The notes under the pieces were generated by a model, which saw only the letters and a program-made list of their open reading frames with translations, searched no databases and had not been told where the DNA came from. A stretch of DNA of 64,000 nucleotides, taken from assembly GCA_963739865.1 (NCBI GenBank), contig CAVUCA010000001.1, positions 16,748-80,747 of the forward strand, in the 5' to 3' direction. This document shows, in pieces, positions 1,296 through 55,419 of the stretch. Made by a program: the position numbers and the translations under genes. Origin of the DNA: an uncultured Chloroflexia bacterium. GTDB taxonomy: Bacteria; Chloroflexota; Dehalococcoidia; Dehalococcoidales; UBA2162. How positions within the stretch are numbered: the stretch's first letter is position 1; each line of letters starts with the position of its first letter.

Positions 1296-1640
1296 TACTT
1301 CTGTCCCAACCCCCGTTTTTACTCTTGTTACCAGCAGATTATGTACTATACCACGTTTATTGTCACGCTAATATTGACCGGTGCTGTAATCTTTATTATA
1401 TAGCTTCGAATCAGGAAAAAACGCCAAATGACGGCGGCATTATCCTCATGATGCAAGTTCGTAACGAAACATTACCCGGCTCTGATATCCGCCCTGGAAT
1501 TTGAGTCTAGCCGCCGAAAGTAATGCTGGTTTCGGAGTTGATTCTCCTGGTGATATACGTTAACATTCATCCCGGCGTAATATTTAAGTTCTAACAACAA
1601 CTGTAAAAATCGATGGTTGAAGTATAAGGAGGTTCGGGAA

Positions 1641-2663
1641 TTGAAAACTGTAAAAGCTGTCATCGTTGAAAAGTACGGACAAGCAGTGCTCAAAGATATC
1701 ACCCTACGGGATTTAGGCCCGGAAGAAATGCTGGTCAAAATATCCTACTGCGGCATCGGTGGTTGCGATCCTTTTATCATCACCGGAGAAGTGGCCCTAC
1801 CTTTGCCCTGGCATATGGGTTACCAGGCATCCGGTATTATTGAAGAGATGGACTCCCGGGCGAAAGCCCGCGGCCTGAAAGTAGGCGACCGCTGCGCTCT
1901 CGACCAACTGCGTTTTTGCGGTGCCTGTTATAACTGTATGCACGGCCGGGAGACTTTCTGTGATAATCGCGAATTCCCCCACGGCTACCTGGATTCTATG
2001 ATGGCCGAATACGCCGTTTTGCATCAGCGGCAGGTCTGGAAGATCCCGGATTCTATCTCCCTGGAGGAAGCTTCACTGACTGAGGTCGTAGGTGCTTCTC
2101 TACCGGCTATCGACCTGGCTCCTTTCAAGATGGGTGACAGCGTCTATATTTCCGGTGCCGGCAGTTGCGGGCTCATTATCTTACAGCTTGCCAAACTACA
2201 GGGGGCGACTAAACTAACCATGGTTGAACCGGTTGAAGCCAAACGAAAGCTGGCCTTGAAACTCGGCGCTGACTATGTGATCGATCCCAAGAACCAGGAT
2301 ATCGTTGCTGAGGCCATGAAAATCACCGACGGCCGTGGCTATGACCGTGTCATCGAGGCTTCCGGCGAAGCCGTGGCCATCGATCCCTGTATTGAGATTG
2401 TCGCCAGGTGCGGCCGCATTGTCTTCTTTGGTATCTACCCCAGTCATTATAAATTTACCGTTGATTTGGATAAACTCTACTTTAAAGAAGCCGGGATACA
2501 GACTGTTTTCGGCCAGTCACACCTCTTTCCCCGTGCGGTCGATATCCTGCCCAAGTTAGATCTGAAATCGATGCTGGGGCCGGTCTTCCCGCTGGAAAAA
2601 TGGCAGGATGCTATCAAAGCCCATCAGACCATGCAGTATGCCAAAGTACTGATAAAGTGTTAG
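1641..2663 (+). CDS. zinc-dependent alcohol dehydrogenase family (MDR; threonine/sorbitol dehydrogenase-like)
   Basis: TTG start at 1641 preceded 8 nt by perfect SD AAGGAGG (1626-1632); protein MKTVKAVIVEKYGQ...CGIGGCD...GDRCALDQLRFCGACYNCMHGRETFCDN (catalytic+structural Zn Cys motifs), Rossmann GAGSCGLIILQLAKLQGA; ORF-track start 1617 is an upstream in-frame TTG without SD. Confidence 0.8.
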   Translation: MKTVKAVIVEKYGQAVLKDITLRDLGPEEMLVKISYCGIGGCDPFIITGEVALPLPWHMGYQASGIIEEMDSRAKARGLKVGDRCALDQLRFCGACYNCMHGRETFCDNREFPHGYLDSMMAEYAVLHQRQVWKIPDSISLEEASLTEVVGASLPAIDLAPFKMGDSVYISGAGSCGLIILQLAKLQGATKLTMVEPVEAKRKLALKLGADYVIDPKNQDIVAEAMKITDGRGYDRVIEASGEAVAIDPCIEIVARCGRIVFFGIYPSHYKFTVDLDKLYFKEAGIQTVFGQSHLFPRAVDILPKLDLKSMLGPVFPLEKWQDAIKAHQTMQYAKVLIKC

Positions 2664-2702
2664 GGTCTACAGCCTAATAAAAACATAAGGAAAATAAAAA
2701 AC

Positions 2703-2729
2703 TCCCGATGTAACCATCGGGAGTTTTTT
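2703..2729. terminator. rho-independent terminator between convergent genes (hairpin CTCCCGATG-TAAC-CATCGGGAG flanked by A-run upstream and T6 downstream; bidirectional)
   Basis: Perfect 9-bp stem 2703-2723, TTTTTT 2724-2729, AAAAAA preceding; lies between stop of + gene (2663) and stop of - gene (2752). Confidence 0.65.
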
Positions 2730-2751
2730 AACCAGGGTTCAATTTTGGGAA

Positions 2752-5114
2752 CTAACTTTTACAGGCCAGGATGGCTCGTTTCACCAGCGTTTTCGCGATC
2801 TGGACCTTGTACTTGCTGTCCACCAGGGCACAAGCTGAGGCTATGGCAGCCTTTCCGGCTTTTTCGGCGGTAGTCTCGTTGATGGCTTTCCCAACCAGGT
2901 ACTCTTCAGCCCCGGTTACCCGGTAGGGCGTGGTGTAAACAGCATTCAAACAGATACGGGCGGACTTTACTTTATTGCCTTCGCTGGTGATGTTTACGGC
3001 ACAGTTCACGATCGGGAAATCTATTGATTTCCGGATGGCAAACTTGATAAAGCTGCCATGAGTTGCACTACCGGTTTTCGGGAATTTCAATATCTGTGAC
3101 GATTTCATCGTCGTCCAATACAGTGCTGCTGTTTCCGGCCACGATGAAAAATTCATCGGCATTGATCCGGCGTTTATTGGTCTTGATCCGGGCATCCAGC
3201 GCCACCAGCGCCGGTGCCATATCCGAGGAATTGACCGCCACACAGCCGCAGTTCAAACACCGCCCGGCTTCTTTCATTGTTGCTTCTGCCGGGAGTCCTC
3301 CGATGTCCTCTACAACCAGGCTCTTCAATCTTTTTTCCATTGCGAGTTCGGGATTTGCTGCCCGTTTGCTCGCGGTCAGGTATTCGCTGTCGAAGGTCAG
3401 CGGTTGTTTTACCGCTATATTGCGGCCGGGGCTGAGCCCTTTTGCGCCCAGGTATCTACTGATGATGTCTGCCGTCCGCCGCCCCGCCGCCATCGCCCCT
3501 GCTACTGTGGACGGCCCGGTAACGAAGTCACCCGCGGCGAATACCTTCGAACCGTCGAGATTGCCATTTTCATCTATTTTTAGTTGCCCCGTCTTATTCA
3601 TAAATATTCGCAGGGATAATAGCCTTGTCCGGCTCTTCGCCTAAAGCTTTCATCACGGCATCGTATTGAGAAGAAAACTCCGAACCGCTTACCGGTACCG
3701 GCCGCGGGCGTCCGCTATCATCTGGCGGCCCGAGTTTCATCCTGGTACAGGTAAGGATGATTTTGCTTCCCTTCTTAACTGCGTTTACCGGTAAGGTCAG
3801 GAACTGGATAGTTATCCCTTCCTCCTCCGCTCGTTCCACCTCTTCGTGTACCGCCGGCATTTCTGCCTTCGTCCGCCGGTATACGATCACCGGGTCTGCC
3901 CCCAACCTCTTCAGGGTCCGGGCAATATCGATGGCGACGTTGCCCCCACCGATCACGGCCACTTTCTTGCCCGGGGTTTTGGCCTTCCCCTGGTTCATTT
4001 CTCTAAGAAAACCGGTCCCGGAGAGAAATAGTTCGTCGCCTTTGATGCCGGACTCCCGTTCCTTCCAGGCGCCGCAGGCCAGGAATACAGCGTCATATTT
4101 TTTCATCAACCCGTTGACCGTTATCTTCTTCCCGATTTCGACCCCGGTCTTGAAAGTTACCCCGGCCGTCTCTAATGCCTTCACTTGTGACCGAACAATA
4201 TCTTTGGGCAAACGGTACGCCGGAATACCATATCTCAGCATGCCGCCTGCTTCGTTTTGCGCTTCGTACACAGTCACCCGGAAACCTTGCTTCATCAGGT
4301 AATAAGCCGCAGCTAATCCCGCCGGGCCCGACCCCACCACCGCTACTTCCTTCCGGTACCGGATATGCGGTGCCTTGATGAATTCGGCAGCGTGTTCCAG
4401 TATATAGTCTCCCACCGTCCGCTCCACCCCGCGGATATTGACTACCTCGTCAAGGTGGCACCGGTTGCAGCTACCCTCGCAGGGGTGCGGGCATACCCGG
4501 CCTGTGATGGCCGGGATGGCGTTATATTGCAACAGATATTCCGCCGCTCCCTTCATATCGCCCTCGCGGAGCTTTCCCAGGTAGGTCGGGATATCGATGT
4601 TTGCCAGACAGTCGCTGATGCACGGGGTGCTTTCCACCCGGGTGCCGCCGAATATCGAATGGTACCGTCCGTCACCGATCGCCGCGTAACATGTCCGCCC
4701 GCCTTTTCTAAGGCAGTGGAACAGGTTATTCGGTACCCAGTAATACCAGCACCGGTTACTCTGGCAGATATTGCCGGCGATGGTGCCCTGCTCCCGTATA
4801 TGAGGGGAGGCAGTTTTGCCGGCAGCTTCGGCCAACAATGGGCAATACTTCTTGATGGTGTCGCTATTAGCGATATCTTCCAGGCGGGTTAAGGCCCCGA
4901 TTTTGATATTCCGGCTTTCGGCTTTAATATAATCGAGCCCGGTTATGTCCTTGATATTGACAACTACCTCGGGTGATTCCGGTAGTATCCCGTCTTTCAT
5001 CTGTCCCAGCAGGTCGGTGCCGCCGGCGATGATCTTTGCCTTTCCACCGGCTTCTTCGAGAACTGAAGCTGCTTCGCTGATTGAAGTTGCGTTTAGATGC
5101 TTAAAATTTTTCAT
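2752..5114 (-). CDS. Mo-hydroxylase FAD-binding subunit (CoxM/XdhB-like) with an inserted GltD-like 2x[4Fe-4S]/FAD/NAD(P)H oxidoreductase domain; reading frame interrupted twice (ORFs 3594-5114, 3068-3601, 2752-3243)
   Basis: N-term MKNFKHLNATSISEAASVLEEAGGKAKIIAGGTDLLGQMK...TIAGNI (FAD-binding PCMH domain) then CPHPCEGSCNRC, VAVVGSGPAGLAAAYYL, KKVAVIGGGNVAIDIARTL, ...VFAAGDFVTG (GltD-like), then SSDMAPALVALDARIKT...EIVTDIEIPE (rest of FAD domain) and ...FAIRKSIDFPIVNCAVNI...AEEYLVGK (CoxM C-terminal domain). Frame switches at ~3598 (T3 run) and ~3075 (T4 run) each break a conserved domain mid-way; out-of-frame N-terminus of ORF 2752-3243 is W/R-rich junk. Confidence 0.6.
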
Positions 5115-5118: not shown

Positions 5119-7572
5119 TTATGCCTTTCCCAGTGCTTTTAGGACTTTATCCGGTGTCATCGGCATATCGTTCACCCACTTGCCGGTGGCATTGTAGACC
5201 GCCGGTACGATCAGTGTCGGTACTACCGTGGCGACGTCTTCCCCTATCCCCACCAGGCCGTACGGTCCGTAACCCATCCCGCTTTCCACCAGTAAGGTAT
5301 CAATCGGTCCTACATCCAGTATGGTATTTACTTTGTAGTTCAACAGGTTTCCGTTCAACATGATGCCGGTGTTCTTGTCATGGACCACTTCTTCACTTCG
5401 CCCTCGTCCTACCGCCATGTAGGTACCGCCGTACTGCTGGGCTTCGCACCCTTCCCAACTTATCACTTTACCGACGTCATTTACGTTAACCACCCGGGTT
5501 ATTTCCACATCTCCGGTCTCCGGGTCTACTTCCACTTCCATAAAATGAGCCTGGCGGCACAACCGCAACCGGGCTCCCGAATAAGCTCCCCGCTGTATCT
5601 GGAACGAACTGGCAAACATCGGCGGCCGGAAGGGATATCCAGTGATTTTCTCCCCCGCATTCATCGGCTCCCCGTGCGGAGAAAGCAGCGGCCCCATCGC
5701 CCCGGACGGCCCCATGAACTCCGCCATGGTTTTTTGGTTCTTTGGATTAGCCTTTTCATAAATAACACTGTCCTTGATATCCAGGTCTTCCGGCTTTTTA
5801 CCCGGGAAAGCCGGGGGGAAACTGCCGAACTGCGACTGTCCGGTAGGACTGGTCGCTGATTCCAGTATTTTCTGTTTCAATAATCGTGCTGCATTCCGGA
5901 TGGCATAACCGTTGATGGACATGTTGGTTGATGAATCCGGGGTCATTGTGAAAAACCCGGTATCGGCATGCGGCCGGTAGTATACATCCTCAACCTTCAT
6001 TCCAAGTTCGTCGGCGGCTACCTGGCAGTAGGCGGTTTCGGAGTTCACTCCCACGTCCGCCCGGCAGCCCATGATCGTCGCTGTCCCGTCATTTCGTTCG
6101 ATCATGATGGCGATTTCGCCCGACCCCGCTGAGTCTTCCCATTCATGTGTCCAGGTCATGGCAATACCATGCATTTTGCCATTGGCCAATTTTTTCATCC
6201 CCGGTTTATGCCATTTCTTTTGCCAGCCGATCGCCTTTATCCCTTTATCGATGCATTCCTGCAAACTGTCTCTGACTACGAAACCCATCTCGGCTTTACG
6301 CTTATTCAGCCAGGCCATATCATGGCCGTGGGCGCCGTCATTTTTCAGGGCGACTGCCACCGGGTCCATTCCCAGTGCCGCTGCGACCTGGTTAAAAACC
6401 ATGGTCAGGCTGTGGCAGTTGGCATTCTGTTCACAGCGGGTGGGAACGGTCGGCCCTTTATTTACCCGCACCGCCTCCAGTCTCCCGTACACGTTCGGGA
6501 TGCTGGTATTATCAATGAGGTGTTTTACAATGCCGAAAGCCGGCATGTTCTGGTTCACCATCACCCCGCGTTCTTTTACTGCGGTGATCTTGCCGTCTTT
6601 TTTAAAGCCGACCTTGAAATAGTAGACCCCCACATCCATTTCCCCGCCGTAAAAGTCCTCTCTACGGTTAAAGGTCCACTTCACCGGCCGGGCGGTTCGC
6701 TTGGCAATAACGGCGGCACAGTAGTGCCCGCCCATATTCCAGGGCATCTGCGACCAACCGCCGAAGCTGGCCCCCTGGTACAGGGTGTGTATCTGTATTT
6801 TATTCATCGGGATGCCGCCGAACCAGGAGGCGATCGCCCGTTTACAGATATGCGGCCGCTGGTGTTTCAACCAGACTTCAGGGTATTCCCCATTCCACTG
6901 GAAGACGCCGCAAGGACGTTCCGGGCCGATCCAGGTGTTATATCCCTGCTTTAGTTTGAACTCAATGACTTTATCGGCCTCGGCGAATCCTTTTTCCACG
7001 TCGCCGTGCTTTTCAATGGCCATCGCTTCGGCATACAAATTACCATCGGGATAATTCTCCGGGTCAACCAGCGGTGCTCCCGGTTCCAGGGCTAGTTCCG
7101 GGTCGAGGATGAACGGCCGTACTTCCCAGACGACTTCTATCAGCGATAAGGCCTGTTCGGCGATTTCTTCGCTGTCAGCCGCCACGGCCGCACCAACTTC
7201 TTCACCCTGGAAATGGGCAACTCTGGGAATGACCGTTACCGGCGAGGGTTCATGTCCGCCCAGGTCCACGGTTGGCGGAAGCTCTGTATCGTCATATCGC
7301 AGGACCGCCCTGACTCCCGGATAAGCTTCGGCTTTGCTTGTGTTCATACTTTTAATTTCCGCATGGGGATACGGCGAGGTCAGGAACCGCAGGTGCAGCA
7401 TACCGGGTAGTTTTACATCCAGGGTATATTTGGCTTGTCCGGTAGCTTTCTCATAACCATCTATCCGGCGGACCCCCCGCTTCCCCACCTGGCGGTATTC
7501 TTTAAGGGGATATTTGTCGTGCCTGGTATTATCAAATAATTCCTGTATCTTGGCCATCTCATCTTGAGGCAT
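5119..7572 (-). CDS. xanthine dehydrogenase/aldehyde oxidase family molybdopterin-binding large subunit (CoxL-like)
   Basis: 817-aa ORF, ATG 7572 with SD GGAGGAAG; N-terminal a/b hammerhead and Mo-pterin binding regions typical of family; 1-nt gap to upstream 2Fe-2S gene, 4-nt gap to downstream FAD gene. Confidence 0.9.
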   Translation of the reverse strand: MPQDEMAKIQELFDNTRHDKYPLKEYRQVGKRGVRRIDGYEKATGQAKYTLDVKLPGMLHLRFLTSPYPHAEIKSMNTSKAEAYPGVRAVLRYDDTELPPTVDLGGHEPSPVTVIPRVAHFQGEEVGAAVAADSEEIAEQALSLIEVVWEVRPFILDPELALEPGAPLVDPENYPDGNLYAEAMAIEKHGDVEKGFAEADKVIEFKLKQGYNTWIGPERPCGVFQWNGEYPEVWLKHQRPHICKRAIASWFGGIPMNKIQIHTLYQGASFGGWSQMPWNMGGHYCAAVIAKRTARPVKWTFNRREDFYGGEMDVGVYYFKVGFKKDGKITAVKERGVMVNQNMPAFGIVKHLIDNTSIPNVYGRLEAVRVNKGPTVPTRCEQNANCHSLTMVFNQVAAALGMDPVAVALKNDGAHGHDMAWLNKRKAEMGFVVRDSLQECIDKGIKAIGWQKKWHKPGMKKLANGKMHGIAMTWTHEWEDSAGSGEIAIMIERNDGTATIMGCRADVGVNSETAYCQVAADELGMKVEDVYYRPHADTGFFTMTPDSSTNMSINGYAIRNAARLLKQKILESATSPTGQSQFGSFPPAFPGKKPEDLDIKDSVIYEKANPKNQKTMAEFMGPSGAMGPLLSPHGEPMNAGEKITGYPFRPPMFASSFQIQRGAYSGARLRLCRQAHFMEVEVDPETGDVEITRVVNVNDVGKVISWEGCEAQQYGGTYMAVGRGRSEEVVHDKNTGIMLNGNLLNYKVNTILDVGPIDTLLVESGMGYGPYGLVGIGEDVATVVPTLIVPAVYNATGKWVNDMPMTPDKVLKALGKA

Positions 7573-7573: not shown

Positions 7574-8080
7574 TTACTTCCTCCCCCGCAACAAGCTGGC
7601 GGCTTCTATCACCGCTTTGATATGTTGCGGATAGCTGCCGCAACGGCAGATATTTCCGGCTAAGGCTTGTTTGATCTCTTCCTCGGTCGGGTCCGGATTC
7701 CTGTCCAACAGGGCTTTTGCGGTGACAATGAATCCGGGAGTGCAGTATCCGCACTGCATGCAGCTATATTTTACATAGGTTTCGATCAGCGGATGTTTTG
7801 CCCGGGTGATGCCTTCGATCGTCTCGATTTTCTTACCGTCGCATTCGATCGCCAGTATCATACAGGAGAGCACCGGCCGCCCCTCCATTATCACCGTGCA
7901 AGCCCCGCAGGCTCCTTCATCACAAAAGGCTTTCGTTCCTGTCAGCCCGAGGACATCGTGGAGGACATATTGCAGCGTCCAGGTCGCTTCCACGCCCGCT
8001 TCATATAAGTCCCCGTTCACTTCCAGCTTGATCTTTGCCTCGTTGAGTAACTCTTTCTTCTTAACTGTCGTCATATTCAA
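7574..8080 (-). CDS. (2Fe-2S)-binding small subunit of Mo-hydroxylase (CoxS-like)
   Basis: 168 aa; plant-type ferredoxin Cys cluster CDEGACGACTVIMEGRPVLSC plus second cluster motif CRCGSY; first gene of minus-strand operon. Confidence 0.9.
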   Translation of the reverse strand: MNMTTVKKKELLNEAKIKLEVNGDLYEAGVEATWTLQYVLHDVLGLTGTKAFCDEGACGACTVIMEGRPVLSCMILAIECDGKKIETIEGITRAKHPLIETYVKYSCMQCGYCTPGFIVTAKALLDRNPDPTEEEIKQALAGNICRCGSYPQHIKAVIEAASLLRGRK

Positions 8081-8212
8081 GTCATCTCCTTAGGACAGGC
8101 TTGCATCGTTGAAGGCCAATCCTGCCGTAAATGTAGTGGAAAAAACAATGAAACTTTTTGATTATACATAACACACTTGATTTTGACTAGATTGAAGTTG
8201 GCTATTTCGATA

Positions 8213-8251
8213 CAAAAAACATGAAGCGGGGTGGTACCACCCCGCTTCATG
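8213..8251 (-). terminator. rho-independent terminator of htrA (13-bp stem CATGAAGCGGGGTGG-TACC-CCACCCCGCTTCATG followed on minus strand by TTTTTTG)
   Basis: Perfect GC-rich hairpin 8220-8251 with A6 run 8214-8219 on plus strand = U-tract on minus strand, 46 nt downstream of htrA stop. Confidence 0.65.
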
Positions 8252-8297
8252 TTACACAGGAGTCCAATAAGGAGGAACACAGTATTAAAAAATCACT

Positions 8298-9446
8298 TTA
8301 ACGGTCTCCCCAGGGTAGGACAAAGTCGGGTATGTTCGAGTCCGGTGTAACTGATGAATTAGTTGTCTGGGCTGCCAGGGTGACGTTAATACTGACTGTG
8401 GCACCATCACGTACGATAGTAAGCGTTACCTCATCCCCCACCCGTTTTGTCTTGAGATAACTTTGCAGATCGGTAACTTTGGCGACGGTTTGCCCGTCGA
8501 TTGCGGTGATGATGTCTCCGTCTGAATTCGGAGTACCGTCACGTCCGGTTCCGGCACCTATCAGGCCGGCTTTGTCGGCCGGACTGCCGGAAACGGTTTC
8601 CACTACATATACGCCCTGGTTTACCGTCAGGCCGATTTCTTCTGCAGTACTTTGACTAAGGTCCATACCACTGATGCCCAGCCAAGGTTTGACGATTTTT
8701 TCACCGGCGATCAACTCATCCAGCACTGCTTTGGCTACACTGGAAGGTACCGCGAAACCGATCCCTGTCCCTTCGCCTTCGATTGCCGTATTGATACCGA
8801 TCACTTCACCGTTGGAATTAAGCAGGGGGCCTCCCGAGTTGCCGGGTTGAATCGTGGCATCGGTCTGTATCATCCCGGTTAGTGCACTGCCTTCTACGCT
8901 CCGATTTAAACCGCTGACAATACCGGTGGTAATAGAATTGGTCAACCCGTAAGGGCTGCCGATGGCGATTGCCAACTGGCCTGGTTGGACATTTATTGAA
9001 TCTGCCAGGGTTAGTGGTACGATATTTGCTACCAACGCCGCATCTACTTTGATCAACGCCAGATCATCTTTAGAATCTGTCCCCAGTATTGTTGCCTGTT
9101 CGGTGTTGCCATTGGCAAAGACGACCTGGACATCAGTAGCGTCTTCGACCACGTGGTTATTCGTCAGGATATGGCCTTCCTTATCGACAACAAATCCGGA
9201 ACCTTGTCCTTCCGTGGAAAAAGCACCGAAGCCGGTGGTTTGTGTTTTCACGATGATTTCCACTACAGCCGGGCTGGCAGTATCATAAATACTGGTAATC
9301 GTAGTTTCATTTACCAGCGTTTCATTCGAAGCAGCCGCAGCTTTTTGTAATGGTTCACTCTGATTGTTGGTTATAAGGACGAAAATAGCTGCAGCAACCA
9401 GCAAGACTGATACCGCCGCTGTGAACCGGAGAAGCCATTGCTTCAT
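8298..9446 (-). CDS. htrA: trypsin-like serine protease HtrA/DegP family with C-terminal PDZ domain
   Basis: GSGFVVDKEGHILTNNHVVEDA (His), DLALIKVDA (Asp), GNSGGPLLNSNGEVIGINTA (Ser) catalytic triad motifs; PDZ region; start moved to ATG 9446 (MKQWLLRF...signal/TM) which has strong SD GGAGGAGG; ORF-track start 9500. Confidence 0.85.
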   Translation of the reverse strand: MKQWLLRFTAAVSVLLVAAAIFVLITNNQSEPLQKAAAASNETLVNETTITSIYDTASPAVVEIIVKTQTTGFGAFSTEGQGSGFVVDKEGHILTNNHVVEDATDVQVVFANGNTEQATILGTDSKDDLALIKVDAALVANIVPLTLADSINVQPGQLAIAIGSPYGLTNSITTGIVSGLNRSVEGSALTGMIQTDATIQPGNSGGPLLNSNGEVIGINTAIEGEGTGIGFAVPSSVAKAVLDELIAGEKIVKPWLGISGMDLSQSTAEEIGLTVNQGVYVVETVSGSPADKAGLIGAGTGRDGTPNSDGDIITAIDGQTVAKVTDLQSYLKTKRVGDEVTLTIVRDGATVSINVTLAAQTTNSSVTPDSNIPDFVLPWGDR

Positions 9447-9711
9447 CTCCTTTACCTCCTCCCTTTGATGATTCCGGCAAGCCATCGGCAGCCACTCCAA
9501 TTCCCGTGGAATGGCTGCCGAACCTTGCCACCCCAGGACTCCTTAATATTCGCGTAAAAATGTTTAGGAATTATTAAGAAACTAGAACCGGCATGGTATA
9601 CTGGATTCCTGCCGATTTCACTTGGATAATCGACCATAGTGCACTATTACAACTTCAGTAAATTATTTCGAATTTTAAGAATGGTGTTTATCAATCGGAT
9701 CAAGTAAATAT

Positions 9712-10368
9712 ATGGGCTTGGAAGTTATTACTATTAGGTGGCCGATAGTGAACGGCTATCTTCTGAAGACCGGGCATAGCTTTGTCCTTATCGATTCCGG
9801 GTTTTCCTGGCAGCGCTATATCCTGCGTAGCGCCTTAAAAAAAGCCGGGTGTAATCCGGGTGATCTTAAACTCGTGGTAATAACACATGCTGATTTCGAC
9901 CATACCGGTAATTGTGCCTGGTTGCAAAAAACATATAAGGCCCCCATCGCCCTCCACCCCGCCGAAGCACCGGTGGTTGAAAAGGGATGCATGTTCCTCA
10001 ACCGTAAAAACCAGAGAGGGGCTTTATCCCGGACTGTCATTTATCTGGTCGGCTTGTTGATTTTCAGGCGCTTCAAGCCGGATATTTATCTATCCGAGGG
10101 AGAAGACCTGTCCCGTTTTGATCTGGACGCCAGGGTATATTACCTCCCCGGACATTCCCGTGGTTCGATAGGTATCATGACCGGTGAAGGTCAGTTTTTC
10201 TGTGGCGATTTGCTTACGAATGAGGGCAAGCCCGGAAAAAGTACCCTGGTCGACGATGCTTCTGAAATGGATGCCAGTATTGCAAGACTGAAAGTTTTAA
10301 GTATAAGTATTATCTTCCCGGGACACGGTTTACCTTTCACCATGGCCCAATACATCGACACGAAATAA
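9712..10368 (+). CDS. MBL-fold metallo-hydrolase
   Basis: 218 aa; VVITHADFDHTGN (HxHxDH motif), downstream His/Asp ligands (YLPGHSRGS, FPGHG). Confidence 0.8.
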   Translation: MGLEVITIRWPIVNGYLLKTGHSFVLIDSGFSWQRYILRSALKKAGCNPGDLKLVVITHADFDHTGNCAWLQKTYKAPIALHPAEAPVVEKGCMFLNRKNQRGALSRTVIYLVGLLIFRRFKPDIYLSEGEDLSRFDLDARVYYLPGHSRGSIGIMTGEGQFFCGDLLTNEGKPGKSTLVDDASEMDASIARLKVLSISIIFPGHGLPFTMAQYIDTK

Positions 10369-11395: not shown

Positions 11396-11425
11396 GGAGC
11401 GGTCGCTGGACCGCTCCTTTTTTAT
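11396..11425 (+). terminator. rho-independent terminator after AraC-family gene (GGAGCGGTC-GCTG-GACCGCTCC + TTTTTTAT)
   Basis: 9-bp perfect stem 11396-11417 followed by T-tract 11418-11424. Confidence 0.6.
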
Positions 11426-13303
11426 TTCGTCACGATCTTCGCTTTACAGGCGGGGATGATAGCCTGGAGTCCGCAGGTATTGCACGGCCCGTTCCGGCAG
11501 TCATTGGTCTCTTCCGCCCTCAAAGCCCGCTGGTACTCCTCTTTCAGGAAAGCGGGACTTACACCAATATCAATATGCTCCCAGGGTAAAGGTTCATCTA
11601 GTGAACGTTCCCGGCTGGCATAAGAGTCGGGATCGATACCGCATTCGGTAAACGCTTTTTGCCAGATAGCATAGTTGAAATGCTCGCCCCAGGAATCGAA
11701 CAAAGCTCCTTGTTTCCAGGCTTGATATATCACTTTTCCTATACGCCGGTCGCCGCGTGACATCACGGCCTCTAATTGACTGACTTTCGGGTCGGACCAG
11801 GATAATCTGATCGCTTTACGGCGGACGATCTGGTGGAGGAGTTGTTGTTTAGCGGTTAATGCCTCCTCACTTTCCCGTTTTACCCATTGAAACGGAGTAT
11901 GGGGTTTGGGTATGAATGTGGAAAGGTTAACCCGGATCTGGATAGGCCGGCGGCTGACTTTCTGCCCTTCCGTAAATACTTTATTTACGAGATTGCCGAT
12001 TTCCTCAACATCCTCGTTGGTTTCCCCCGGCAGGCCGAGCATGAAATAAAGCTTGAGCCCGCCCCAGCCTTTGGAGAAAGCCGCCGTGGCTGTGGTCAAT
12101 AAATCGTTTTCTGTCACTCGCTTATTGATAGTGCGGCGCATGCGCTCGCTGCCGGCTTCGGGGGCAAAGGTTAACCCGGTCTTCCGGTGTGACGGTAAGC
12201 ATTCCATCAGGTCAACGGAGAAGCTGCCGATATACAGGCTTGGCAAAGATATCGCCAAATCGGGATATTGCTGCGTCAAACTGGTTACCAGTTTCCTGAT
12301 ATCCGAATAATCACTGCTGCTTAAAGAAACGAGGGAAATCTCATCGTAACCGCAGTTCGAAATCACTTCGCCTACTGCACTTAGTACTTCTTCGACCGGT
12401 CTTTCCCGGACCGGGCGGTAAATCGTTCCTGCCTGGCAGAAACGGCAGCCGTTGCTGCACCCTCTTTGTATCTCCACGGCCCCCCGGTCATGGACCACTT
12501 CAATGAAGGGCATGACCGGTTTGGTAACCGGCGGGGGAAGCTGGGGAATTATTCTCCGCTGGATGCGTTCTTTTGCCTCGGGAAATAAAGGTTTTATACT
12601 TTGAAAAAGTCCGTCTGCTTTATATTCGACTTGATAGAGGCTGGGCACATAGATACCGGCGATTTCAGCAAAATGCTGCAGGATATCCTGTCTTGTTTCT
12701 GTCGGTTTACCACTGTCCTTGCGGATCTACCCTGTCTCGTAGTTGCTCGACGATTTCCAGGATGACTTCTTCGCCGTCACCGATGACGAAGAAATCGATA
12801 AAATCCGCCATCGGCTCTGGATTCAATGCACCGCTCCCGCCGGCGATGATCAGGGGATGAGATGCATCCCGGTCCGACGCCATTAATGGGATTCCCGCCA
12901 GGTCCAGCATATTCAGGATATTGGTGTAGGTAAGTTCATGTCCCAGGGAAAAACCGAGGACGTCGAATTTCCGCAGCGGCGTCCTGGACTCCAAGCTGAA
13001 CAATGGTATCTTAGCTTCCCGCATTGCGGCGGCCATGTCAACCCAGGGCGCGAATACCCTTTCGGCAAGGACATCAGGCTGCCGGTTGCAGATATCATAA
13101 AGGATCGGTACTGCCATATTGGACATCCCGATCTCATAGACATCAGGATAAGCCAGTGCGATCCTGATGGGAGTTGCTTCCCAGTCCTTCTTAATGATAT
13201 TCCATTCCCCGCCGGTATACCGTGCGGGTTTATTCACCTGGTGTAAAATACGGTCGAGGTTTTTCAGTTCATTCACGGTTCGGTTATCCATCCAGTTCTG
13301 CAA
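11422..13303 (-). CDS. radical SAM protein with N-terminal B12-binding-like domain (TIGR03960-like family); frame interrupted once (~12705-12715) between ORFs 12707-13303 and 11422-12648
   Basis: N-part: GGEWNIIKKDW...IALAYPDVYEIGMSNMAVPILYD...FDVLGFSLGHELTYTNILNMLDLAGIPL...IIAGGSGALNPEP; C-part: EVVHDRGAVEIQRGCSNGCRFCQAGTIYRP (CxxxCxxC). Second frame read upstream of its first ATG gives GKPTETRQDILQHFAEIAGIYVPSLYQ, i.e. continuous protein; the two frames are offset by one nt within CCGCAAGGACAGTGG. Confidence 0.7.
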
Positions 13304-14121: not shown

Positions 14122-16835
14122 TTACTTAATGATGATCCTGGCGTCTACTGCCCAGTAACCTTCGCCCTTAGCCCGTACACTGACCGGATTAAGGTCGAGT
14201 TCGGCGATTTCCGGTACGTCTTCTACCATCGCCGAAACCCGCAGCAGAAGCTCCTGTACCGCTTCCGTATCGCTCGGCGGCGCTCCCCGGTAACCGCTGA
14301 ATAATTTGGTCATTTTTAATGAACTGATCATTTCGGCGGCGTCCGAATCGGTGATGGGATGCAGTTTGAAGATAACATCCTTGAGTAATTCGGCGAAGAC
14401 ACCACCCGAACCGAACATGATCAGGGGGCCGAATGACGGGTCCTGCGTGACCCCCACGATGGTCTCGATCCCGCCGGTTACCATCCGCTGTAAGGTAACC
14501 CCGGACATCTCTTTCTCCCGGCCCAGCTTCTTCAGGTTTTTCCGGATCGTCTCGTAGGCTTCTTCTACACCGGCCTCCGAGGTTATGTTCAGGACAACGC
14601 CGCCGACATCCGTCTTGTGCGTGATGGTGGGTGATGCCAGTTTGACGGCGAGCGGGAAGCCGAGTTTTTTCGCCGCGGCCTTCGCTTCGGCAGGAGTAGT
14701 TGGCGGCGGCGATTTTTGCCTGTTGAATGCCGTAGCAATCCAGTAACTCGGCTACCTGACTGGCAGAGAGATGTACCGGCCGTTCGGTACTGTTTTTCAA
14801 TACGGTTTCCACCAATTGGCGGGCATCAGCCTTTCGTATATCTTTGAAAACCGGGATTTTTCCCATTGGTTTGCGCCGAATTTCCGAATATTCAACGGCT
14901 CTTTTGAGCGCCGAAATAGCTTCTTCCGGGAAGGTATACAGAGGGATGAAGTGCCCCTGGGCGCTAAGTTGGGCACTAATACCTTTCTGTCCGATAAAGC
15001 ATCCCAGTAAGGGTTTCTTAGCCCGCCAAAATACCGGCGCCATCCGCCGTAGATGTTTCTTCCATATCTTTTGTTTCCACCACGATCGGCGGCACGAAGA
15101 TGGTCAAAACGGCGTCGATATTGTCATCGGCGGCCAGTACTTTCAGAATTCCTTCGTACTCTTCTGCCGTTGCCCCGGCCGTGGTGTCCATGGGATTGCC
15201 CAGGTTGATATCACGCTTTAACGACGGCTTGATTTTTTCCTTGGTTTCGGCACTCAACTCGGGCACTTCCAGGCCGTTGAGTGAAGCCGCGTCCGCCGCC
15301 ATGATACCCGGGCCGCCGCCGTTGGTTACGATTGCGATTCTTCTTCCCTTGGGCAGCGGTTGGGTGGATAAAAATGTCCCCAGGTTGAAGAGTTCTTCTA
15401 CTGAATTCACCCTGATGATACCGGCATTTTGGAAGAGGACATCCGAAGCCACATTCGATGAAGCCAAAGCTCCGGTATGTGACGAGGCCGCCCGGGCGCC
15501 GGCGGCGGTCATGCCGCCTTTTACCGCAACGATCGGTTTTTTCGCCGATACCCTGCGGGCGATCCGGGTAAACCGGCTGGAATCACCGAACGACTCGATA
15601 TATAACAATATCACCTTCGTCGCCGGGTCCTGTTCCCAATACTGCAGCAGGTCATTGGATGATACATCACCGCGGTTGCCGACGCTGACGAAAGTAGATA
15701 TCCCCATATTCAGGTTCTTGGCGTGTTCCAGGATGGCCAGGCCCATGGCGCCGCTCTGGGATAGGAAAGCGACACTGCCTACCGCCGGGTATACCTGAGA
15801 GAAGGTAGCATTGAGTTTGATCGCGGGGTCGGTATTGATGACCCCCATGCAGTTCGGGCCGATCAGGCGCATCCCGTAACTGAGGATGATGCTCCGGAGT
15901 TCCTCTTCTTTGGCTAGCCCTTCCGCACCACGCTCTCTGAAACCATCCGATATCACGATCAGGGCGCGAACTCCCTTCCGCCCGCATTCGTCAGCAACCT
16001 TGGGCACGATGGCTGCCGGGACCGCGATAATGGCCATATCCACTTTATCGGGAATATCCAGTACCGAGGGATACGATTTTACGGAGAGGACCGAATTGGT
16101 ATTGGGGTTAACCGGATAAACCGTCCCGGAAAAGCCGTTATATAAGATACAGCGCATCAACAGGTTGCCGATCGTGCCGGGATTACGTGCCGCCCCGATG
16201 ATGGCCACCGATTTCGGGTTGAGTATCGGTTGTAACGAAGTGACGATGGCATCACGGTCACGTTCCGCCTGCTTCGCATCGGCTTCCTTGGTTTGTTTGA
16301 TCGGGAAGGTGATATGGAATTCACCGGCTTGCAGTTCGCTGGACATATGGAAGCCATAGTCCAGGAATGCTCCCATCAGATATGTATTCTGGCCTAAGAC
16401 GTAGGCTTCGAAAGTGGAAATATCATTTTTCCGGGCTGTGTCCACCAGGGCATCGATGAGTAAAGTAACCAGGCCGGCATGCTGGTAAGCATCTTCGACG
16501 GCAAAAGCTACTTCCGCCGAACTCTTATTAGGTAAACGGTAATAATGTGCCACAGCGATGATTTTCCGGTCCTGCCGGGTCCCGGTTTCCGCCACGTACG
16601 AAAAAGAGTTCCGGTAATCTACGGTACAATAACGGAGGGCATCGCCTTCGGTCATTTCTTTCTTAATCGTATGAAAACGGAAGTACCTGGTTTTCTCACT
16701 CAACCGTGAAATAAATGACAGCCATAAAGGCACGTCGCTTTTTTCAGTAGCTCGCAATAATACTTTCCGCCCGTCCTTGAGGATCTCTTCGCGGCGGTAC
16801 TTTATCAGGTCTTGGGTGATTTGTGCTTCAACCAT
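14122..16835 (-). CDS. GNAT acetyltransferase fused to ADP-forming acyl-CoA synthetase (Pat/AcuA-like protein lysine acetyltransferase architecture, alpha+beta ATP-grasp); frame interrupted twice (ORFs 15018-16835, 14189-15043, 14122-14508)
   Basis: N-term GNAT (…RYFRFHTIKK…AFAVEDAYQHAGLVTLL), then CoA-binding/ligase-CoA domains (KSVAIIGAAR…GPNCMGVINT…VSVGNRGDVS…), then ATP-grasp region (AAKKLGFPLAVKLASPTITHKTDVGGVVLNI in third frame, …GPLIMFGSGGVFAELLKD…). Shifts near 15040 and near 14700 (GCC repeat / T5 run); out-of-frame tail of ORF 14189-15043 is Arg-rich junk. Confidence 0.65.
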
Positions 16836-25086: not shown

Positions 25087-28000
25087 TTAAGCTTTCGATG
25101 CCTGTCTCCGTTTCCTTAACAGTAAGATGATAAGAATGATCACAACCAGGACGATTCCTATGGCTGCAGTAAGTAACCAGTTGATCCTTCCGCTGGTATT
25201 ACCGGAGATAGTAAAGCTGCCAGCCAGGCTGCCGGCCGCTACTTGATAAATACCCGGTTCGTCCCGGACAACGGTAAAAACGACCGTCCGGTTTTCTCCG
25301 GCAGCCAGGTCAACGGCCTTTTCCTCTACAGGTACGCCGTTTATCCGGAGAGCCAGGATATAACTACCCGGGGTACCACCGGTATTTGCCAGCGTAACCG
25401 ACACCTTGATAGTAGAACCGGGGTGGCTTTCCGGTACATCGATAGTTAAGTTCGTGACGGAAAATGCCGCCGGGGCCGGGGCTTGCGGAGCGGTAACGGT
25501 AAAGATTCCGGCCAGGCCGTCGATATCGACATGATATTCACCGGGGATTTCCCGGGTGACGGTGAAGACCACCGTACGGCGTTCGCCCGCAGCCAGGTCT
25601 AGCGGTATTTCAGTTGTTTTCACACCGTTGATCACCAGGATAGAGGTATGACGGCCGGCTGAACTACCGTTGTTGACAACGGCTGCAGTGATGGTAACCG
25701 CTTGTCCGGGGGCAACTGCAGCCGGGGAAACTGATAAAGAGGAAGAAGTAAAAACCGCCGGCGGGATTGAAAGCACCGCAAAAGTAGTGAAGTGGGCGAT
25801 TTCTGCAGTAATGGTATGCCGGGTAGTATCCAAGGTGCAGTCCAGATACATCCAGACCCCGGTAGCCTCATCATAATAAGCCCAAACCAGGGCTTCATCG
25901 GAAATCACGGCAGGGAGGGTATCGTTTGTGTAATCATATTCCAGGACAGCATAAGGACTAAAAACAGCACCGGTAGGCCCGAAGTTATAAGCCGTCCCGA
26001 TGATAGAGGCGCCGGTAGGGGTGGCGGGTGGACTATCGTTTACGGTGCCGGTTAACGAGGCGAGGGGCAGGCCTTTATGATCTCTGGCTTGAGCCCCAGC
26101 CGGGATGGAGAGGGACAAGCGTCCGTCGGCAGACACTAACTTGATGTCGGAAACGGCCTTGCCGTTTAGATCGAGACTATAGAAAGTCCGGGTACCACAG
26201 AAGTCGGCCTGGAGATAATTTACCACCGGCACGGCCGGAAGTGGGGCAGGGAGCAACGACGTAGTGGAGGCGACGTACACCGACATATGGTCGAGCAACA
26301 GGCCGATGGTATACATCTCCCCGGCCAGGCCCAGCACGGTGCCGCCCGGTTCGTAGGCGGTGCCGTCGACCGTTCCTGATTTCCCGGCCAGTTCATAATG
26401 TCCGGTTAGCTTATTCCGGTAATAGATATAAGGCCGGCTGCCGGCGGCTACTGTTACTACGGCGGTGAAGTCCTGGGAGAAACTGACCTGCTGTTCCGGG
26501 TTGCCCATCTCGATCACCACCGCCGTTGGCGGCAGGGTACTTTGCATTTCGGTATCTGGTTTCACTATCCGCGGCGGGTAAATTACACCGCCATAAATCT
26601 GGCCGGCAGCGTCCGTTAAGGCTGTCCCCGGCGGGATAACCACCTCTACCGCCGCTTCCATCCCGGAATCCGGTACGGCCCCGGCCGCAGTGGTCAACGT
26701 CACCTGCACCGGGATAGTGCCTCCCGCCCCCGGTTCGATGATGCCGGCGGTGCTGATCTCCTGTCCTCCTTCAAGCCCGGCCGGCTCCGGGGCCATCACC
26801 GTGTATTTGACGGTGCTAACCGTGTTCGTACCTGCAGCCGTGGTCACCTGTACGTCGTAAGTGCCTTCCGTCAGGGCAGGAAAATCGGCGGTGATGAAAG
26901 TGCTGCTATTAACCGTGAAGCCGGCAGCGGTATGGCCGCTCAAAGCAACCGCGGCAGCCCCGGCGAAATTCGCACCATATAAGCGCACTCCGGCTTGCGG
27001 GTGGCCGCTGACGGCAATGCCGGGTATCAAATTGGTCACCACCGGCAGGGGCTCTGGCAGGGCATGCACGGTGTACGCTGCCGTGCTCAGGAGAGATGTC
27101 CCGTAAGCGTTACTGATACGGACGTAATAACTCCCTGGCGGCGTCCCCGTTGCCACCGTGGCCGTGATTTCGCTGTCGCTGATGACGTTTACGTCTGCCA
27201 GTGACAACACGTTTTCCCGGCCGACCAGACATACTACCGCGGCTCCCCCGGCTGCAAAATTACACCCCGTCGATATGAGGGTCCGGTCCCGGCCGTTGTC
27301 CCCGTCCGGCGGGTTAAGGCCGGTCACCAACGGTACACGAGCGGTAGTGGCCAGGCTGACCACGTTGCTGACAGGCGAGGTGTTCGGTATCTCGTCCTGA
27401 ACTTTGATGGCGAAGTAGTAAAGGGTGCCTGGTTTCAGGCGGCCGACGGTGAACGATTCCGTTTCTCCACCCGCTGCCGGCGATAATTTATTATGTACTG
27501 TGTCGGCGGCAGCGAAGTTGCCGTCATCAATGGGAGAGGTAGACTGTTTGATGATATATTTGCGGGCAAAGCCGGTGTCCCCATCATCTCCGGTGGCGGT
27601 CCAGGTCAATAACACACTGGAAGACGCAGGGTCACCGGCCGAAACAGCCAGACTAGTGACGGCCGCCGGGGCAGTGTGATCGGGCGCATTGGTACTCAAC
27701 GTCGACGCTTCGAGATAACTGATGCCCGACCGCAGTTCGCCGTCGACTACACTCAGCCCGAAATAATATTTCGTCCCCGGCTGCAATCCTTTCACCAGCA
27801 TCTGCTGAGCCGTATTTTCCGGGACCGGTTCACCGGACATACATTTCGCTTTCGTCCAGGTTGCCGGGGTATCCAGGGGCGAGGTGTCATAACGGAAGTC
27901 GTACCGGTCGCCCTTCCAGATACCGCCCCCCGTCCATGCCAATACCACCGCATCACAGGCCGCCTGGCCGGCCGAAGGTGCGGTTGGTGCCTTCAGGTGC

Positions 28001-30333: not shown

Positions 30334-30661
30334 AGATTTATCCTCCACAGACCAGCCTACGGAACGTAAGTCAAACCTGGCTGGGAGGATTCTACAACTG
30401 TAATGATGAACAATCTCTTAACTTCGTACCGGAAAATCTGAACATTGTCTGAATATTTTTAATCACCCTCTCCAGTAATCTGGAGAAGGAACTCTATCCT
30501 CGATGTAGACTGGAAAATTCATGGTAAGGCAGGTGTCCCGTCGGACGAAATCCAGCTATATCTACCCCCGGATCAAGTCCGGGGCAAACTTTTGGAAAAA
30601 GAAGAGGAACCCACGAAACAACCTGAAGCTAGTTTACAAGGTTTGTTGAAACAACCTCAGA

Positions 30662-39139: not shown

Positions 39140-39201
39140 ATTTTCCCTGCCTTTCGGTTATTTCCAGGAGACTTAATTTCCTGGAAATATGCCCATTTTT
39201 C

Positions 39202-41376: not shown

Positions 41377-41426
41377 GTTCCCTCCTCATCCCAAACGGTC
41401 AAATTAGATTCCGTGGGGCAGGTGGT

Positions 41427-41759
41427 TTATTCGGCCGCATATTTCGCTTTCAGCTTGTCTACATCCAGTTCAATGTCATAGGTAACAGGGTGCCCGGGCG
41501 GCAAAACTTCATTTTCCACCATGACGGCGCAAACCGGGCAATAGAATTCGATGATGCGGCAGAGTTCCGGGTCGGGGGCAAAGCTGTTGTCGGGTAGGAC
41601 GGGGTTATAGACGGTGCGGGGGTCCCGGTCGTAGACCAGGCAGCCTTTCTTATAATTCTCCCGGGCAGAAATTAACTCACGGCCGCAGCGGTTGCAGCAC
41701 CATTTTTCGGTGTCCAGGTCGATGTCCAGGTATTCCGTAATCCGTATTTTTCGTCCCAT
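41427..41759 (-). CDS. acetone-carboxylase gamma-subunit-like small zinc-ribbon protein
   Basis: 110 aa with CCNRCGRE…CPVCAV (CxxC…CxxC), size and position between two HyuA-like genes as in apcB/acxC. Confidence 0.65.
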   Translation of the reverse strand: MGRKIRITEYLDIDLDTEKWCCNRCGRELISARENYKKGCLVYDRDPRTVYNPVLPDNSFAPDPELCRIIEFYCPVCAVMVENEVLPPGHPVTYDIELDVDKLKAKYAAE

Positions 41760-41762
41760 GGC

Positions 41763-47333: not shown

Positions 47334-47523
47334 TATCGCCCGGCTGGCGGTGCTGTTATAAACTTTTAAACCACTTATAATTAAGGTATAAATAGTGAAA
47401 GATAGCAATCCCGGGCCTGCTGGAGAGGCTGCCGGACTTTTTAAATGTCCGGGGGCTTTAGGCCGGGGGGATGCTGTACGGTCGAAGTCCTTTTACCGGG
47501 TAAATTATGCAAAGGGGGGGCAA

Positions 47524-49362: not shown

Positions 49363-49366
49363 GACG

Positions 49367-49636
49367 TTGAAGATCGAAGTATTATTCTTCGGGCGCGCCC
49401 GTACCATTACGGGCGCCGCCCGGAAAACGGTAAACATCAGTGAAGGGGTGAAGTTAGCGGACCTGTTCCGGCTGCTGGACTGCCGCTATGACAACAAATT
49501 CAGCGGTGAATTTAAGGATTTTAAAGGGCTGATGGTTATGATAAACGGCCGTCATTACAACTCGGTCGGCGGCCCGGATGCCCCGCTGAACGATAAAGAT
49601 ACGGTGGCTATCATGCCGGCGGTGGTGGGGGGGTAA
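49367..49636 (+). CDS. MoaD/ThiS family sulfur-carrier protein (C-terminal Gly-Gly)
   Basis: 89 aa, MKIEVLFFGRARTITGA…DTVAIMPAVVGG*; 4 nt after AOR stop. Confidence 0.8.
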   Translation: MKIEVLFFGRARTITGAARKTVNISEGVKLADLFRLLDCRYDNKFSGEFKDFKGLMVMINGRHYNSVGGPDAPLNDKDTVAIMPAVVGG

Positions 49637-49931: not shown

Positions 49932-50102
49932 CGAGGCGACCCTCCTCTTCACCACATAGGTAATAGTTGACGGAATACTATCTTATAACATCATCAAGGC
50001 ATTTATTAACAGTATTACCGATGAACCGGATAAATTCATTATAATAAAAATACGGGGATGTTTCTTAACAACGTAAGGGAAAAACACCATGATCAAGTCC
50101 GA

Positions 50103-50131
50103 TTGACAAATTGACGGATAGTATATAGAAT
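50103..50131 (+). promoter_or_regulatory. putative sigma-70 promoter of AOR paralogue 2 (TTGACA-17 nt-TAGAAT)
   Basis: TTGACA 50103-50108, 17-nt spacer, TAGAAT 50126-50131; leaves ~160-nt structured 5' leader before ATG 50298. Confidence 0.45.
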
Positions 50132-55303: not shown

Positions 55304-55419
55304 TAACTTCAACGCAACAAAATCTCCCGCCTTGATTGACATAAATCCCGGGTAAATCTAGAATGGGTGCCATGTTAAGGGTTAAATAATTGCGAATAAA
55401 CCGCAAGGAGTGTGGCGAC

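Follow-up and report, generated by a model that had tools for sequence, protein, structure and literature searches.

What is a pyridine nucleotide-linked flavoprotein module doing inside the FAD subunit of a molybdenum hydroxylase? The question is raised by a locus in the DNA of an uncultured Chloroflexia bacterium (order Dehalococcoidales), of which a stretch of 64,000 nucleotides, hereafter the window, was analysed (GenBank assembly GCA_963739865.1, contig CAVUCA010000001.1, positions 16,748 to 80,747 of the forward strand). On the minus strand of the window a coxS-like, a coxL-like and a third gene (2752..5114) stand in a row and form one transcription unit. A first-pass annotation, made from the letters alone, had described the third gene as a CoxM/XdhB-type FAD domain that is interrupted by a GltD-like Fe-S/FAD/NAD(P)H module and then resumed. 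In molybdenum hydroxylases of the xanthine oxidase family, the electron acceptor is NAD+, which reacts at the enzyme's own FAD, or O2, or else ferredoxin, reached through the extra cluster of PaoB/HcrB-type enzymes.

The third gene encodes an interrupted FAD subunit

Open reading frames (ORFs) and Pfam matches bore out the coordinates and the motifs that had been quoted for the third gene, and the domain search proposed with them returned both PF00941 and PF03450, with the module appearing as Fer4_20 plus Pyr_redox_2. Along the protein, FAD_binding_5 (PF00941) was matched with its profile positions 2-115 at residues 3-120, followed by Fer4_20 at residues 162-241, by Pyr_redox_2 at residues 256-455 and over another 40 at the start of the next ORF, by FAD_binding_5 again, now with profile positions 112-169, and finally by CO_deh_flav_C (PF03450, 3.8e-17). 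From this order and the split FAD_binding_5 match, the product of the third gene is a CoxM/XdhB-type FAD subunit split by a nested GltD-like module, as had been claimed.

The N-terminal part of the CoxM FAD-binding domain (residues 1-159; 4638..5114, minus strand, as for all parts of this gene) comprises the FAD-contact motifs AGGTDL at residues 30-35 and TIAGNI at 111-116 together with the cysteines C122, C134 and C142. The rest of this domain follows the module as residues 624-679 (3077..3244), and residues 680-786 with the stop codon (2752..3075) correspond to the CoxM C-terminal domain. In an alignment of 41 fused homologues, on which all statements of invariance below are based, G31, G32, D34, G114 and N115 were invariant.

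The borders of the insert were obtained from relatives that lack it. In a scan of species-representative genomes, fused relatives had a length of about 780-800 residues and uninserted relatives one of 316-350 residues. The latter are 55-62% identical to residues 1-159 and 624-786, with just 1-4 residues between these two parts. Because the uninserted relatives match both flanks, the insert could be delimited to residues 160-623, i.e., 464 residues, where the first estimate had been about 400. Such a pattern of flanks and insert cannot be due to chance. A survey of homologues for the insertion point had been proposed as a check, and it found the same fused order recurrently.

Frameshifts in the fused gene

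In the assembly, the fused gene is split over three frames, 5114..3594 (506 residues), 3601..3068 (177 residues) and 3243..2752 (163 residues). The first frameshift results from an extra T at position 3602 within a T-run (ATTT|ATG) and the second from an extra A at position 3076 within an A-run (GAAAAC); homologues are in frame at both positions, and of equal length at the first. Removal of T 3602 and A 3076 gave a protein of 786 residues which aligned without gaps to two single-ORF proteins, namely P0271, an intact metagenomic protein of 786 residues (90% identity), and P0002 from a metagenome-assembled genome (MAG) of Dehalococcoidales type (75% identity). The three ORFs are hence one gene, as proposed in the first pass. 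The neighbourhood of P0002 is that of the window, with HtrA, coxS, coxL, the fused gene, a convergent Zn-dependent alcohol dehydrogenase (Zn-ADH) gene and DUF362.

Identity to the homologues stays up downstream of both shifts, and at least five further frameshifts are present elsewhere in the window. Taking these two observations and the gapless alignment with P0271 into consideration, both frameshifts are most likely indel errors of the assembly. The organism would therefore probably make the intact protein of 786 residues. Three ORFs in three frames, the second of which begins with an ATG overlapping the stop codon of the first, could also be read as a pseudogene or as three truly separate small proteins in this organism. 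The breaks would then cut through the Rossmann fold and through the FAD_binding_5 domain, although orthologues at 75-90% identity are gapless single ORFs and conservation is undiminished past the shifts. Both breaks are, in addition, one-base additions in homopolymers, at least five other genes of the window are broken alike, and other MAGs have the same fused gene broken at different positions (L020, L021, L023). We consider a pseudogene or separate proteins highly improbable.

Programmed frameshifting was ruled out, since orthologues are in frame at both sites. A chimera produced by mis-assembly, which had been raised as an objection to the fusion, was likewise ruled out by the finding of the same domain order on hundreds of independent contigs.

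Among the other broken genes of the window are a radical-SAM gene (11422..13303) split by a frameshift, a GNAT/NDP-forming acyl-CoA synthetase gene (14125..16835), probably frameshifted twice, one of three aldehyde:ferredoxin oxidoreductase (AOR) paralogues (52399..54251), and a shortened Hcp/prismane gene (58244..59810), which is probably frameshifted too. The breaks in these genes lie at about 12720, 14650, 15040, 53490 and 58750. The overall picture suggests that the assembly of the window is rich in indel errors, as for example one made from long reads only.

The inserted module and its cysteine junction

In alignments with 5y6q_B, PaoB (5g5g_B) and HcrB (1rm6_B), the host cysteines C122, C134, C142 and C624 fall in the [4Fe-4S] loop of these subunits. 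The host is accordingly predicted to be a PaoB/HcrB-type FAD subunit that binds a [4Fe-4S] cluster in this loop. The spacing of the loop cysteines is PaoB-like and not HcrB-like. The HcrB pattern C122-x15-C138-x7-C146-x8-C155 is not present; C146 of HcrB corresponds to a Tyr here, and C134 has a Trp as its HcrB counterpart. The point of insertion is one residue ahead of C624, the fourth cysteine of the loop, so that 464 residues lie between the third and fourth loop cysteines and not a compact loop of about 40. The first-pass annotation had pointed to a smaller Fe-S insertion at a comparable place in the FAD subunit of 4-hydroxybenzoyl-CoA reductase (4-HBCR). The site was well chosen, with the correction that the module is nested within that very loop.

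The insert itself (3245..4637) is an NfnL/GltD-like module. It comprises the cysteines C165, C169, C208, C212 and C216, the glutamate E231, a GSGPAG motif for FAD, GGGNVA and YRR413-414 for NADPH, an AAGD motif, a variable linker and a terminal RC619LNC622. Against the PDB, NfnL-type modules were matched with E-values from 1e-101 to 1e-74, led by 9n5u_A (3e-101) and 9bov_A (3e-98) and including NfnB of T. maritima (4ylf_B, 1.5e-88), StnC (8oh5_C, 9e-83) and NfnL of P. furiosus (5jca_L, 5e-82). The predicted fold of the module gave target-normalised TM-scores of 0.71-0.74 against NfnL, NfnB and GltD in Foldseek, where only relatives of the module were found again.

The module had been called a complete GltD module. 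Its Fe-S, FAD and NADPH motifs are indeed present, but the N-terminal RCxxC is missing. Fer4_20 was matched only from profile position 29, and of the cysteines in a canonical GltD Fe-S domain the third is the first that the module retains. The absent EAxRCxxC motif reappears on the C-terminal side of the module at residues 615-622, as EAGRC619LNC622GC624. The resulting junction C619-x2-C622-x-C624 (3242..3259) has all three cysteines invariant.

Alignments and ligand counting allow a tentative assignment of these cysteines. In Csac NfnA, the FAD-adjacent cluster is bound by Cys108/147/151/Lys170 (PMC11829005). These residues align to C169/C208/C212/E231, the glutamate being found also in NfnB, NfnL and GltD. 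For two [4Fe-4S] clusters the module provides five cysteines and one glutamate, and RC619xxC622 the remaining two ligands. The same count holds in the stand-alone protein P0124, in which RCxxC is directly followed by a 2x[4Fe-4S] ferredoxin domain. We infer that C619 and C622 would complete the distal [4Fe-4S] cluster of the module and that C624 would be the fourth ligand of the host loop. In the 41 homologues all 11 cysteines, E213, E231, GSGPAG, GGGNVA, YRR413-414 and the AAGD region were invariant or nearly so, which is consistent with the cofactor content and the cysteine-to-cluster assignment proposed here. The junction would then be a natural example of a domain inserted at a metal-cluster ligand, with the C-x2-C-x-C motif sharing its cysteines between two clusters.

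Comparison with known systems

When the insert was removed, the top PDB match of the flanks was 5y6q_B (2.7e-40). Like the fused enzyme, PaoABC (5G5G) and the Methylobacillus aldehyde oxidase (5Y6Q) are heterotrimeric members of the xanthine oxidase family, with an extra loop [4Fe-4S] cluster in the FAD subunit and equal cysteine spacing. Their loop is continuous, however, and has no NADPH module, and the molybdenum subunit of the window is only distantly related to theirs.

The molybdenum subunit gives its top PDB match to HcrA of 4-HBCR (HcrCAB of Thauera aromatica, 1RM6/1SB3), and HcrB has its [4Fe-4S] loop at the same site. 4-HBCR differs by having the third cysteine ligand elsewhere, by using ferredoxin and by the absence of a GltD-like module. 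In 4-HBCR the extra [4Fe-4S] cluster is tied to an inverted electron flow (Unciuleac 2004, as cited in PMC3958847), one that is driven by ferredoxin.

This likeness opens the way to a reductive reading, in which NADPH would drive electrons inward to the molybdenum as in 4-HBCR, for instance for the dehydroxylation of an aromatic acyl-CoA, and the module would replace reduced ferredoxin. HcrA and the NCBIfam model 4hydrxCoA_A are the top matches of the molybdenum subunit, and the FAD subunit bears the extra [4Fe-4S] cluster that goes with inverted electron flow in 4-HBCR. Among the hosts of fused genes, Syntrophorhabdaceae, Sporobacter and Papillibacter are known to metabolise aromatic compounds, and genes for CoA-transferase, enoyl-CoA hydratase and HGD-D lie beside some of the loci. 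Against this, all three subunits are far below the cut-offs of the 4-HBCR equivalogs (TIGR03194/03195/03193), with 299 versus 994.55, 155.8 versus 404.55 and 154.5 versus 257.8 bits, respectively, the first pair being that of the coxL-like protein on 4hydrxCoA_A. The cysteine spacing is that of PaoB, and the enzymes with the same loop, PaoABC and the 5y6q enzyme, are oxidative aldehyde oxidoreductases. NADPH, at about -320 mV, is also a much weaker reductant than the ferredoxin of 4-HBCR, and no energy-coupling partner was seen. We therefore regard the NADPH-driven reductive reading as unlikely.

Among the closest structurally characterised counterparts of the module are StnC of StnABC (8OH5) and NfnA of the Bfu-type NfnABC (9BOV, 9N5U), with 38-40% identity and E-values of 1e-83 to 1e-101. 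Both resemble the fused protein in that another Fe-S protein encloses the module, the RCxxC is missing from its N-terminus and EAxRCxxCGC comes after it. The host protein, in contrast, is NuoG/Fdh-like and not CoxM, and the proximal cluster has a Lys where the fused protein has E231. Their partner subunits are of the bifurcating HydBC-like kind, whereas no HydBC-like genes were found near fused loci in the Pfam-annotated neighbourhoods. In StnC and Bfu-type NfnA, the nested module terminates a chain of clusters and lets the electrons of NADPH in without bifurcating them (PMC10482914, PMC11829005).

These relatives bear directly on the idea of flavin-based bifurcation or confurcation, whereby either the NfnL-like FAD alone or both flavins together would split or merge electron pairs among NADP(H), molybdenum and a third partner such as ferredoxin. 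The homology of the module to the bifurcating NfnL/NfnB (4ylf_B, 1.5e-88; 5jca_L, 4.8e-82), its conserved Glu-ligated proximal cluster and the strictly anaerobic life of the hosts speak for it, as does the potential of aldehyde/acid couples, which is sufficiently low for the reduction of ferredoxin. Yet Glu ligation has no diagnostic value, as it also occurs in the non-bifurcating GltD. The Pfam-annotated neighbourhoods (seven contexts) encoded neither an NfnS/PyrK-like nor a HydBC-like partner, the nested module of StnC and Bfu-type NfnA is itself non-bifurcating, and the predicted chain runs straight through, no branch being visible. Bifurcation or confurcation by this enzyme appears very improbable to us. 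Glu231 had been considered as a marker of bifurcation and was rejected, given the Glu at this position in non-bifurcating GltD; the Lys is confined to StnC and Bfu-type NfnA.

In a bifurcating version, the NfnL-derived FAD would split the electron pairs of NADPH, sending a very-low-potential electron through the wire of three [4Fe-4S] clusters, FAD and [2Fe-2S] clusters to molybdenum, where it would drive a 4-HBCR-like reduction beyond the reach of NADPH alone, and the other electron to a high-potential acceptor. In the confurcating reverse, oxidation of a low-potential aldehyde would reduce both ferredoxin and NADP+. A class of molybdenum enzymes that bifurcate or confurcate electrons in this way would be new; that the fused subunit represents one is, in our estimate, quite unlikely.

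Outside CoxM, the closest relatives of the module are PorD-like stand-alone NAD(P)-binding Fe-S flavoproteins (PRK12771/PRK12814 type, e.g., P0124), with an identity of 48-55% that varies with the alignment used; two models of this type, NF009410 and NF009454, were also the top NCBIfam matches (420 bits). Here RCxxC follows the module, as in the fused protein, but the module then continues into a 2x[4Fe-4S] ferredoxin domain in place of the CoxM remainder, and the context is free of a molybdenum enzyme. NfnAB/NfnSL and GltD share the module fold, the Glu(Cys)3 proximal cluster and the FAD and NADPH motifs; their RCxxC is N-terminal, and they are separate subunits with NfnS or GltB as partner.

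The E. coli ygfK and ygfM genes had been cited as separate neighbours that are fused here. In the ygfK-ssnA-ygfM-xdhD cluster, a GltD-like Fe-S flavoprotein, a CoxM-like FAD subunit and a Mo/Fe-S subunit are indeed co-encoded (PMC2276186), and the genes are separate; ssnA, however, lies between ygfK and ygfM, the complex is only putative, and YgfK, with 1032 residues, has a different architecture. On the YgfK model TIGR03315 the fused protein P0002 scored 304.6 bits, through the module region only, against a cut-off of 835.3. It is not a YgfK orthologue, the module being nearest to the NfnL/StnC type, and the E. coli cluster can count at most as a split analogue.

No solved structure or curated family covering the fusion was found in searches of the PDB and NCBIfam, nor was a paper on this architecture found in the full-text literature, of which most subscription journals were outside the coverage. 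All the parts are known, i.e., the subunits of the xanthine oxidase family, the loop cluster of PaoB/HcrB and the NfnL/GltD module, also in the nested form that has RCxxC behind it; it is their combination that appears new.

Distribution and spread of the module

The first-pass annotation had considered the architecture unusual. It is uncharacterised, though far from rare, with hundreds of single-ORF homologue clusters across several phyla. More than 120 clusters at the 90% identity level have lengths of 781-801 residues and 57-76% identity to the window protein, and more than 120 further clusters surround the protein of Sporobacter termitidis. Among the 150 top representatives at 50% identity, about 17 were of the fused type. 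Carriers were found in Dehalococcoidales, Chloroflexia, Actinomycetes, Syntrophorhabdaceae, Leptospirales and many genomes of Oscillospiraceae, Papillibacter and Sporobacter; in metagenomes from the subsurface, sludge, soil and termite guts, many anaerobes share this design. Two copies are present in a cultured strain, S. termitidis DSM 10068, so that the family is open to experiment. The names given in databases are unspecific ('NADPH-dependent glutamate synthase beta chain', 'FAD-dependent oxidoreductase' or a JGI double COG name), and characterisation would give a function to hundreds of misnamed genes.

Every fused locus with upstream sequence showed the order coxS-coxL-fused coxM. The fused loci fall into at least two clades. 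In clade A, which includes the window, the molybdenum subunits are mostly 66-94% identical to that of the window, across phyla, with outliers at 50-52% (L003, L066), whereas in clade B the identity is just 28-31%. Between Chloroflexota and Actinomycetes, the clade A molybdenum subunits are mostly 66-85% identical, and the module of a Leptospirales MAG (L006) is 75% identical to that of a Sporobacter, i.e., a Firmicutes, locus (L009). Together these likenesses point to horizontal transfer of the whole operon.

PorD-like proteins of 540-600 residues, some of them fused to PorG, also carry the module, near residue 45, and StnC/NfnA-type proteins of 1100-1200 residues have it near residue 100. In a neighbour-joining tree of the flanks, inserted and uninserted forms were interleaved, and in the comparison of modules those of clade A were nearer to the stand-alone protein than to the clade B modules. 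From these two observations, the module may be a portable NADPH cassette that was independently inserted into at least three unrelated scaffolds (CoxM, NuoG-like and PorD-like), perhaps repeatedly into CoxM. The neighbour-joining trees of flanks and of modules conflict and are near saturation. The finding would gain in interest if such recurrent insertion, or bifurcation by the enzyme, were true.

In P0124, P0129 and P0134 the module lies between an N-terminal 'GxWR..P' stretch and the 2x[4Fe-4S] domain, and has the look of a general NADPH cassette. Single Acidobacteriota MAGs (L037-L040 on OY761556.1; L028/L031/L044/L045) carry at least four paralogous uninserted operons of PaoB type. In L031 (12784..14704, Acidobacteriota) a separate, apparently frameshifted GltD-like gene is located some 4.5 kb downstream from a CoxM-like gene that lacks the insert; here the same partnership may exist in split form.

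Electron path, direction and substrate

In PaoABC and 4-HBCR the loop cluster is taken as the contact for an external electron partner, which is ferredoxin in 4-HBCR. Because an NfnL/GltD-type module is spliced into this partner-facing loop, we think it rather likely that the enzyme would bring its own pyridine nucleotide partner, the NADP(H) module standing in the place of ferredoxin. GltD-like modules pass the electrons of NAD(P)H to a partner domain via low-potential [4Fe-4S] clusters (PMC8097209). Electrons would be exchanged between substrate and molybdenum cofactor, the two [2Fe-2S] clusters of CoxS, the FAD of CoxM and the loop [4Fe-4S] cluster (C122/C134/C142/C624), and from there through the distal (C165/C216/C619/C622) and the proximal [4Fe-4S] cluster (C169/C208/C212/E231) to the FAD of the module and NADP(H). 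Each protomer would thereby contain about 16 Fe, in three [4Fe-4S] and two [2Fe-2S] clusters, together with 2 FAD and 1 Mo. The direction would be oxidative, substrate + H2O + NADP+ giving oxidised product + NADPH. We infer NADPH specificity, direction and substrate from these comparisons; the enzyme is probably a NADP+-reducing oxidoreductase, possibly acting on an aldehyde.

The guess of an aldehyde for clade A has two sources. The closest structurally characterised FAD subunits are those of aldehyde oxidoreductases, and genes for alcohol dehydrogenases from three unrelated families turn up repeatedly within the operon or next to it. The Zn-ADH neighbour of the window is found again in L001 and on the contig of P0271, a different Zn-ADH lies inside the operon in L065 and L067, short-chain dehydrogenases/reductases occur in or beside it in L066 and L062, and L062 also has an Fe-dependent alcohol dehydrogenase. 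The molybdenum subunits of clade A, clade B and one uninserted relative reached no curated equivalog family and hence gave no substrate, and the Rnf-like and ABC transporter genes near the Sporobacter loci were uninformative in this respect. In L067, a MocA-like nucleotidyltransferase gene (NTP_transf_3; 9412..9978) directly follows the fused gene, which fits a cytidine-dinucleotide molybdenum cofactor.

Several points weigh against an oxidative, NADP(H)-linked enzyme. The association with alcohol dehydrogenases is neighbourhood evidence only, and such genes were not present in L064 or in the Sporobacter loci. The top, if weak, match of the molybdenum subunit is to the reductive enzyme 4-HBCR, and this match to HcrA keeps the reductive direction in play, albeit with little chance. 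A single substrate for the whole family is probably not to be expected, as the clade B molybdenum subunit is so distant from that of the window. The AlphaFold2 model, made from the alignment of the 41 sequences, had a mean predicted local distance difference test score (pLDDT) of 71.9 and a predicted template modelling score (pTM) of 0.53, with every Fe-S loop below 50 in pLDDT; with the Fe-S loops so poorly modelled, it was unusable for cluster distances or domain packing. The family is known from sequences alone, and its curated names are generic. A recent, real pseudogenisation in this strain is a very slight prospect.

Weighing these points, a linear, oxidative, NADP(H)-linked molybdenum hydroxylase remains the best explanation overall, one we hold to be reasonably likely. 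The fused family would represent a fourth electron route in the xanthine oxidase family, with a complete NADPH:Fe-S flavoprotein in the loop that otherwise faces ferredoxin, and its characterisation would show how low-potential molybdenum chemistry is coupled to the NADP(H) pool in anaerobes.

The operon and its surroundings in the window

The operon appears in the assembly as five consecutive minus-strand ORFs, one of 168 residues (8080..7574), one of 817 residues (7572..5119) and the three pieces of the fused gene. The coxS-like small subunit (7574..8080, 168 residues) contains two [2Fe-2S] domains (Pfam Fer2_2, 6e-27, and Fer2), and its top NCBIfam matches were the gamma subunits of glyceraldehyde dehydrogenase and 4-HBCR, both under cut-off. 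The coxL-like molybdopterin subunit (5119..7572, 817 residues) was matched by Ald_Xan_dh_C, MoCoBD_1 and MoCoBD_2 of Pfam and, at the top of its PDB matches, by HcrA (1rm6_A, 3.6e-54); the glutamate of its C-terminal GIGE motif aligned with that of ASEG in HcrA. No Tat signal was evident in the window enzyme, in contrast to PaoABC, which is exported via a Tat signal on PaoA.

The three genes are bracketed as a unit. A promoter-like site (TAGTCA-17-TATAAT, 10 of 12 matches to the consensus, the match being its sole basis) lies 5' of coxS at 8161..8189 on the minus strand. A terminator-like hairpin with a 16-bp stem and a T tract stands directly 3' of the fused gene (2695..2730, minus strand), and a second strong one is found at 8253..8218. 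Beyond the first hairpin, the convergent gene of the Zn-dependent alcohol dehydrogenase family (1617..2663, plus strand; NCBIfam and Pfam matches) is a possible functional partner.

Further along, three tungsten-type AOR paralogues (AFOR_N + AFOR_C) stand in a row at 47395..54251 on the plus strand, the third being the frameshifted one mentioned above; from these the organism appears to invest heavily in aldehyde oxidation. On the minus strand, one B-type and two A-type hydantoinase/oxoprolinase genes lie together (36995..43808) and resemble acetone/acetophenone carboxylase. This group is followed by a URO-D-like gene (43861..44865), and a second URO-D-like gene is found at 55390..56736. Finally, an ORF of 1753 residues with beta-helix, fn3 and CARDB domains (25087..30348, minus strand) presumably encodes a giant surface protein.

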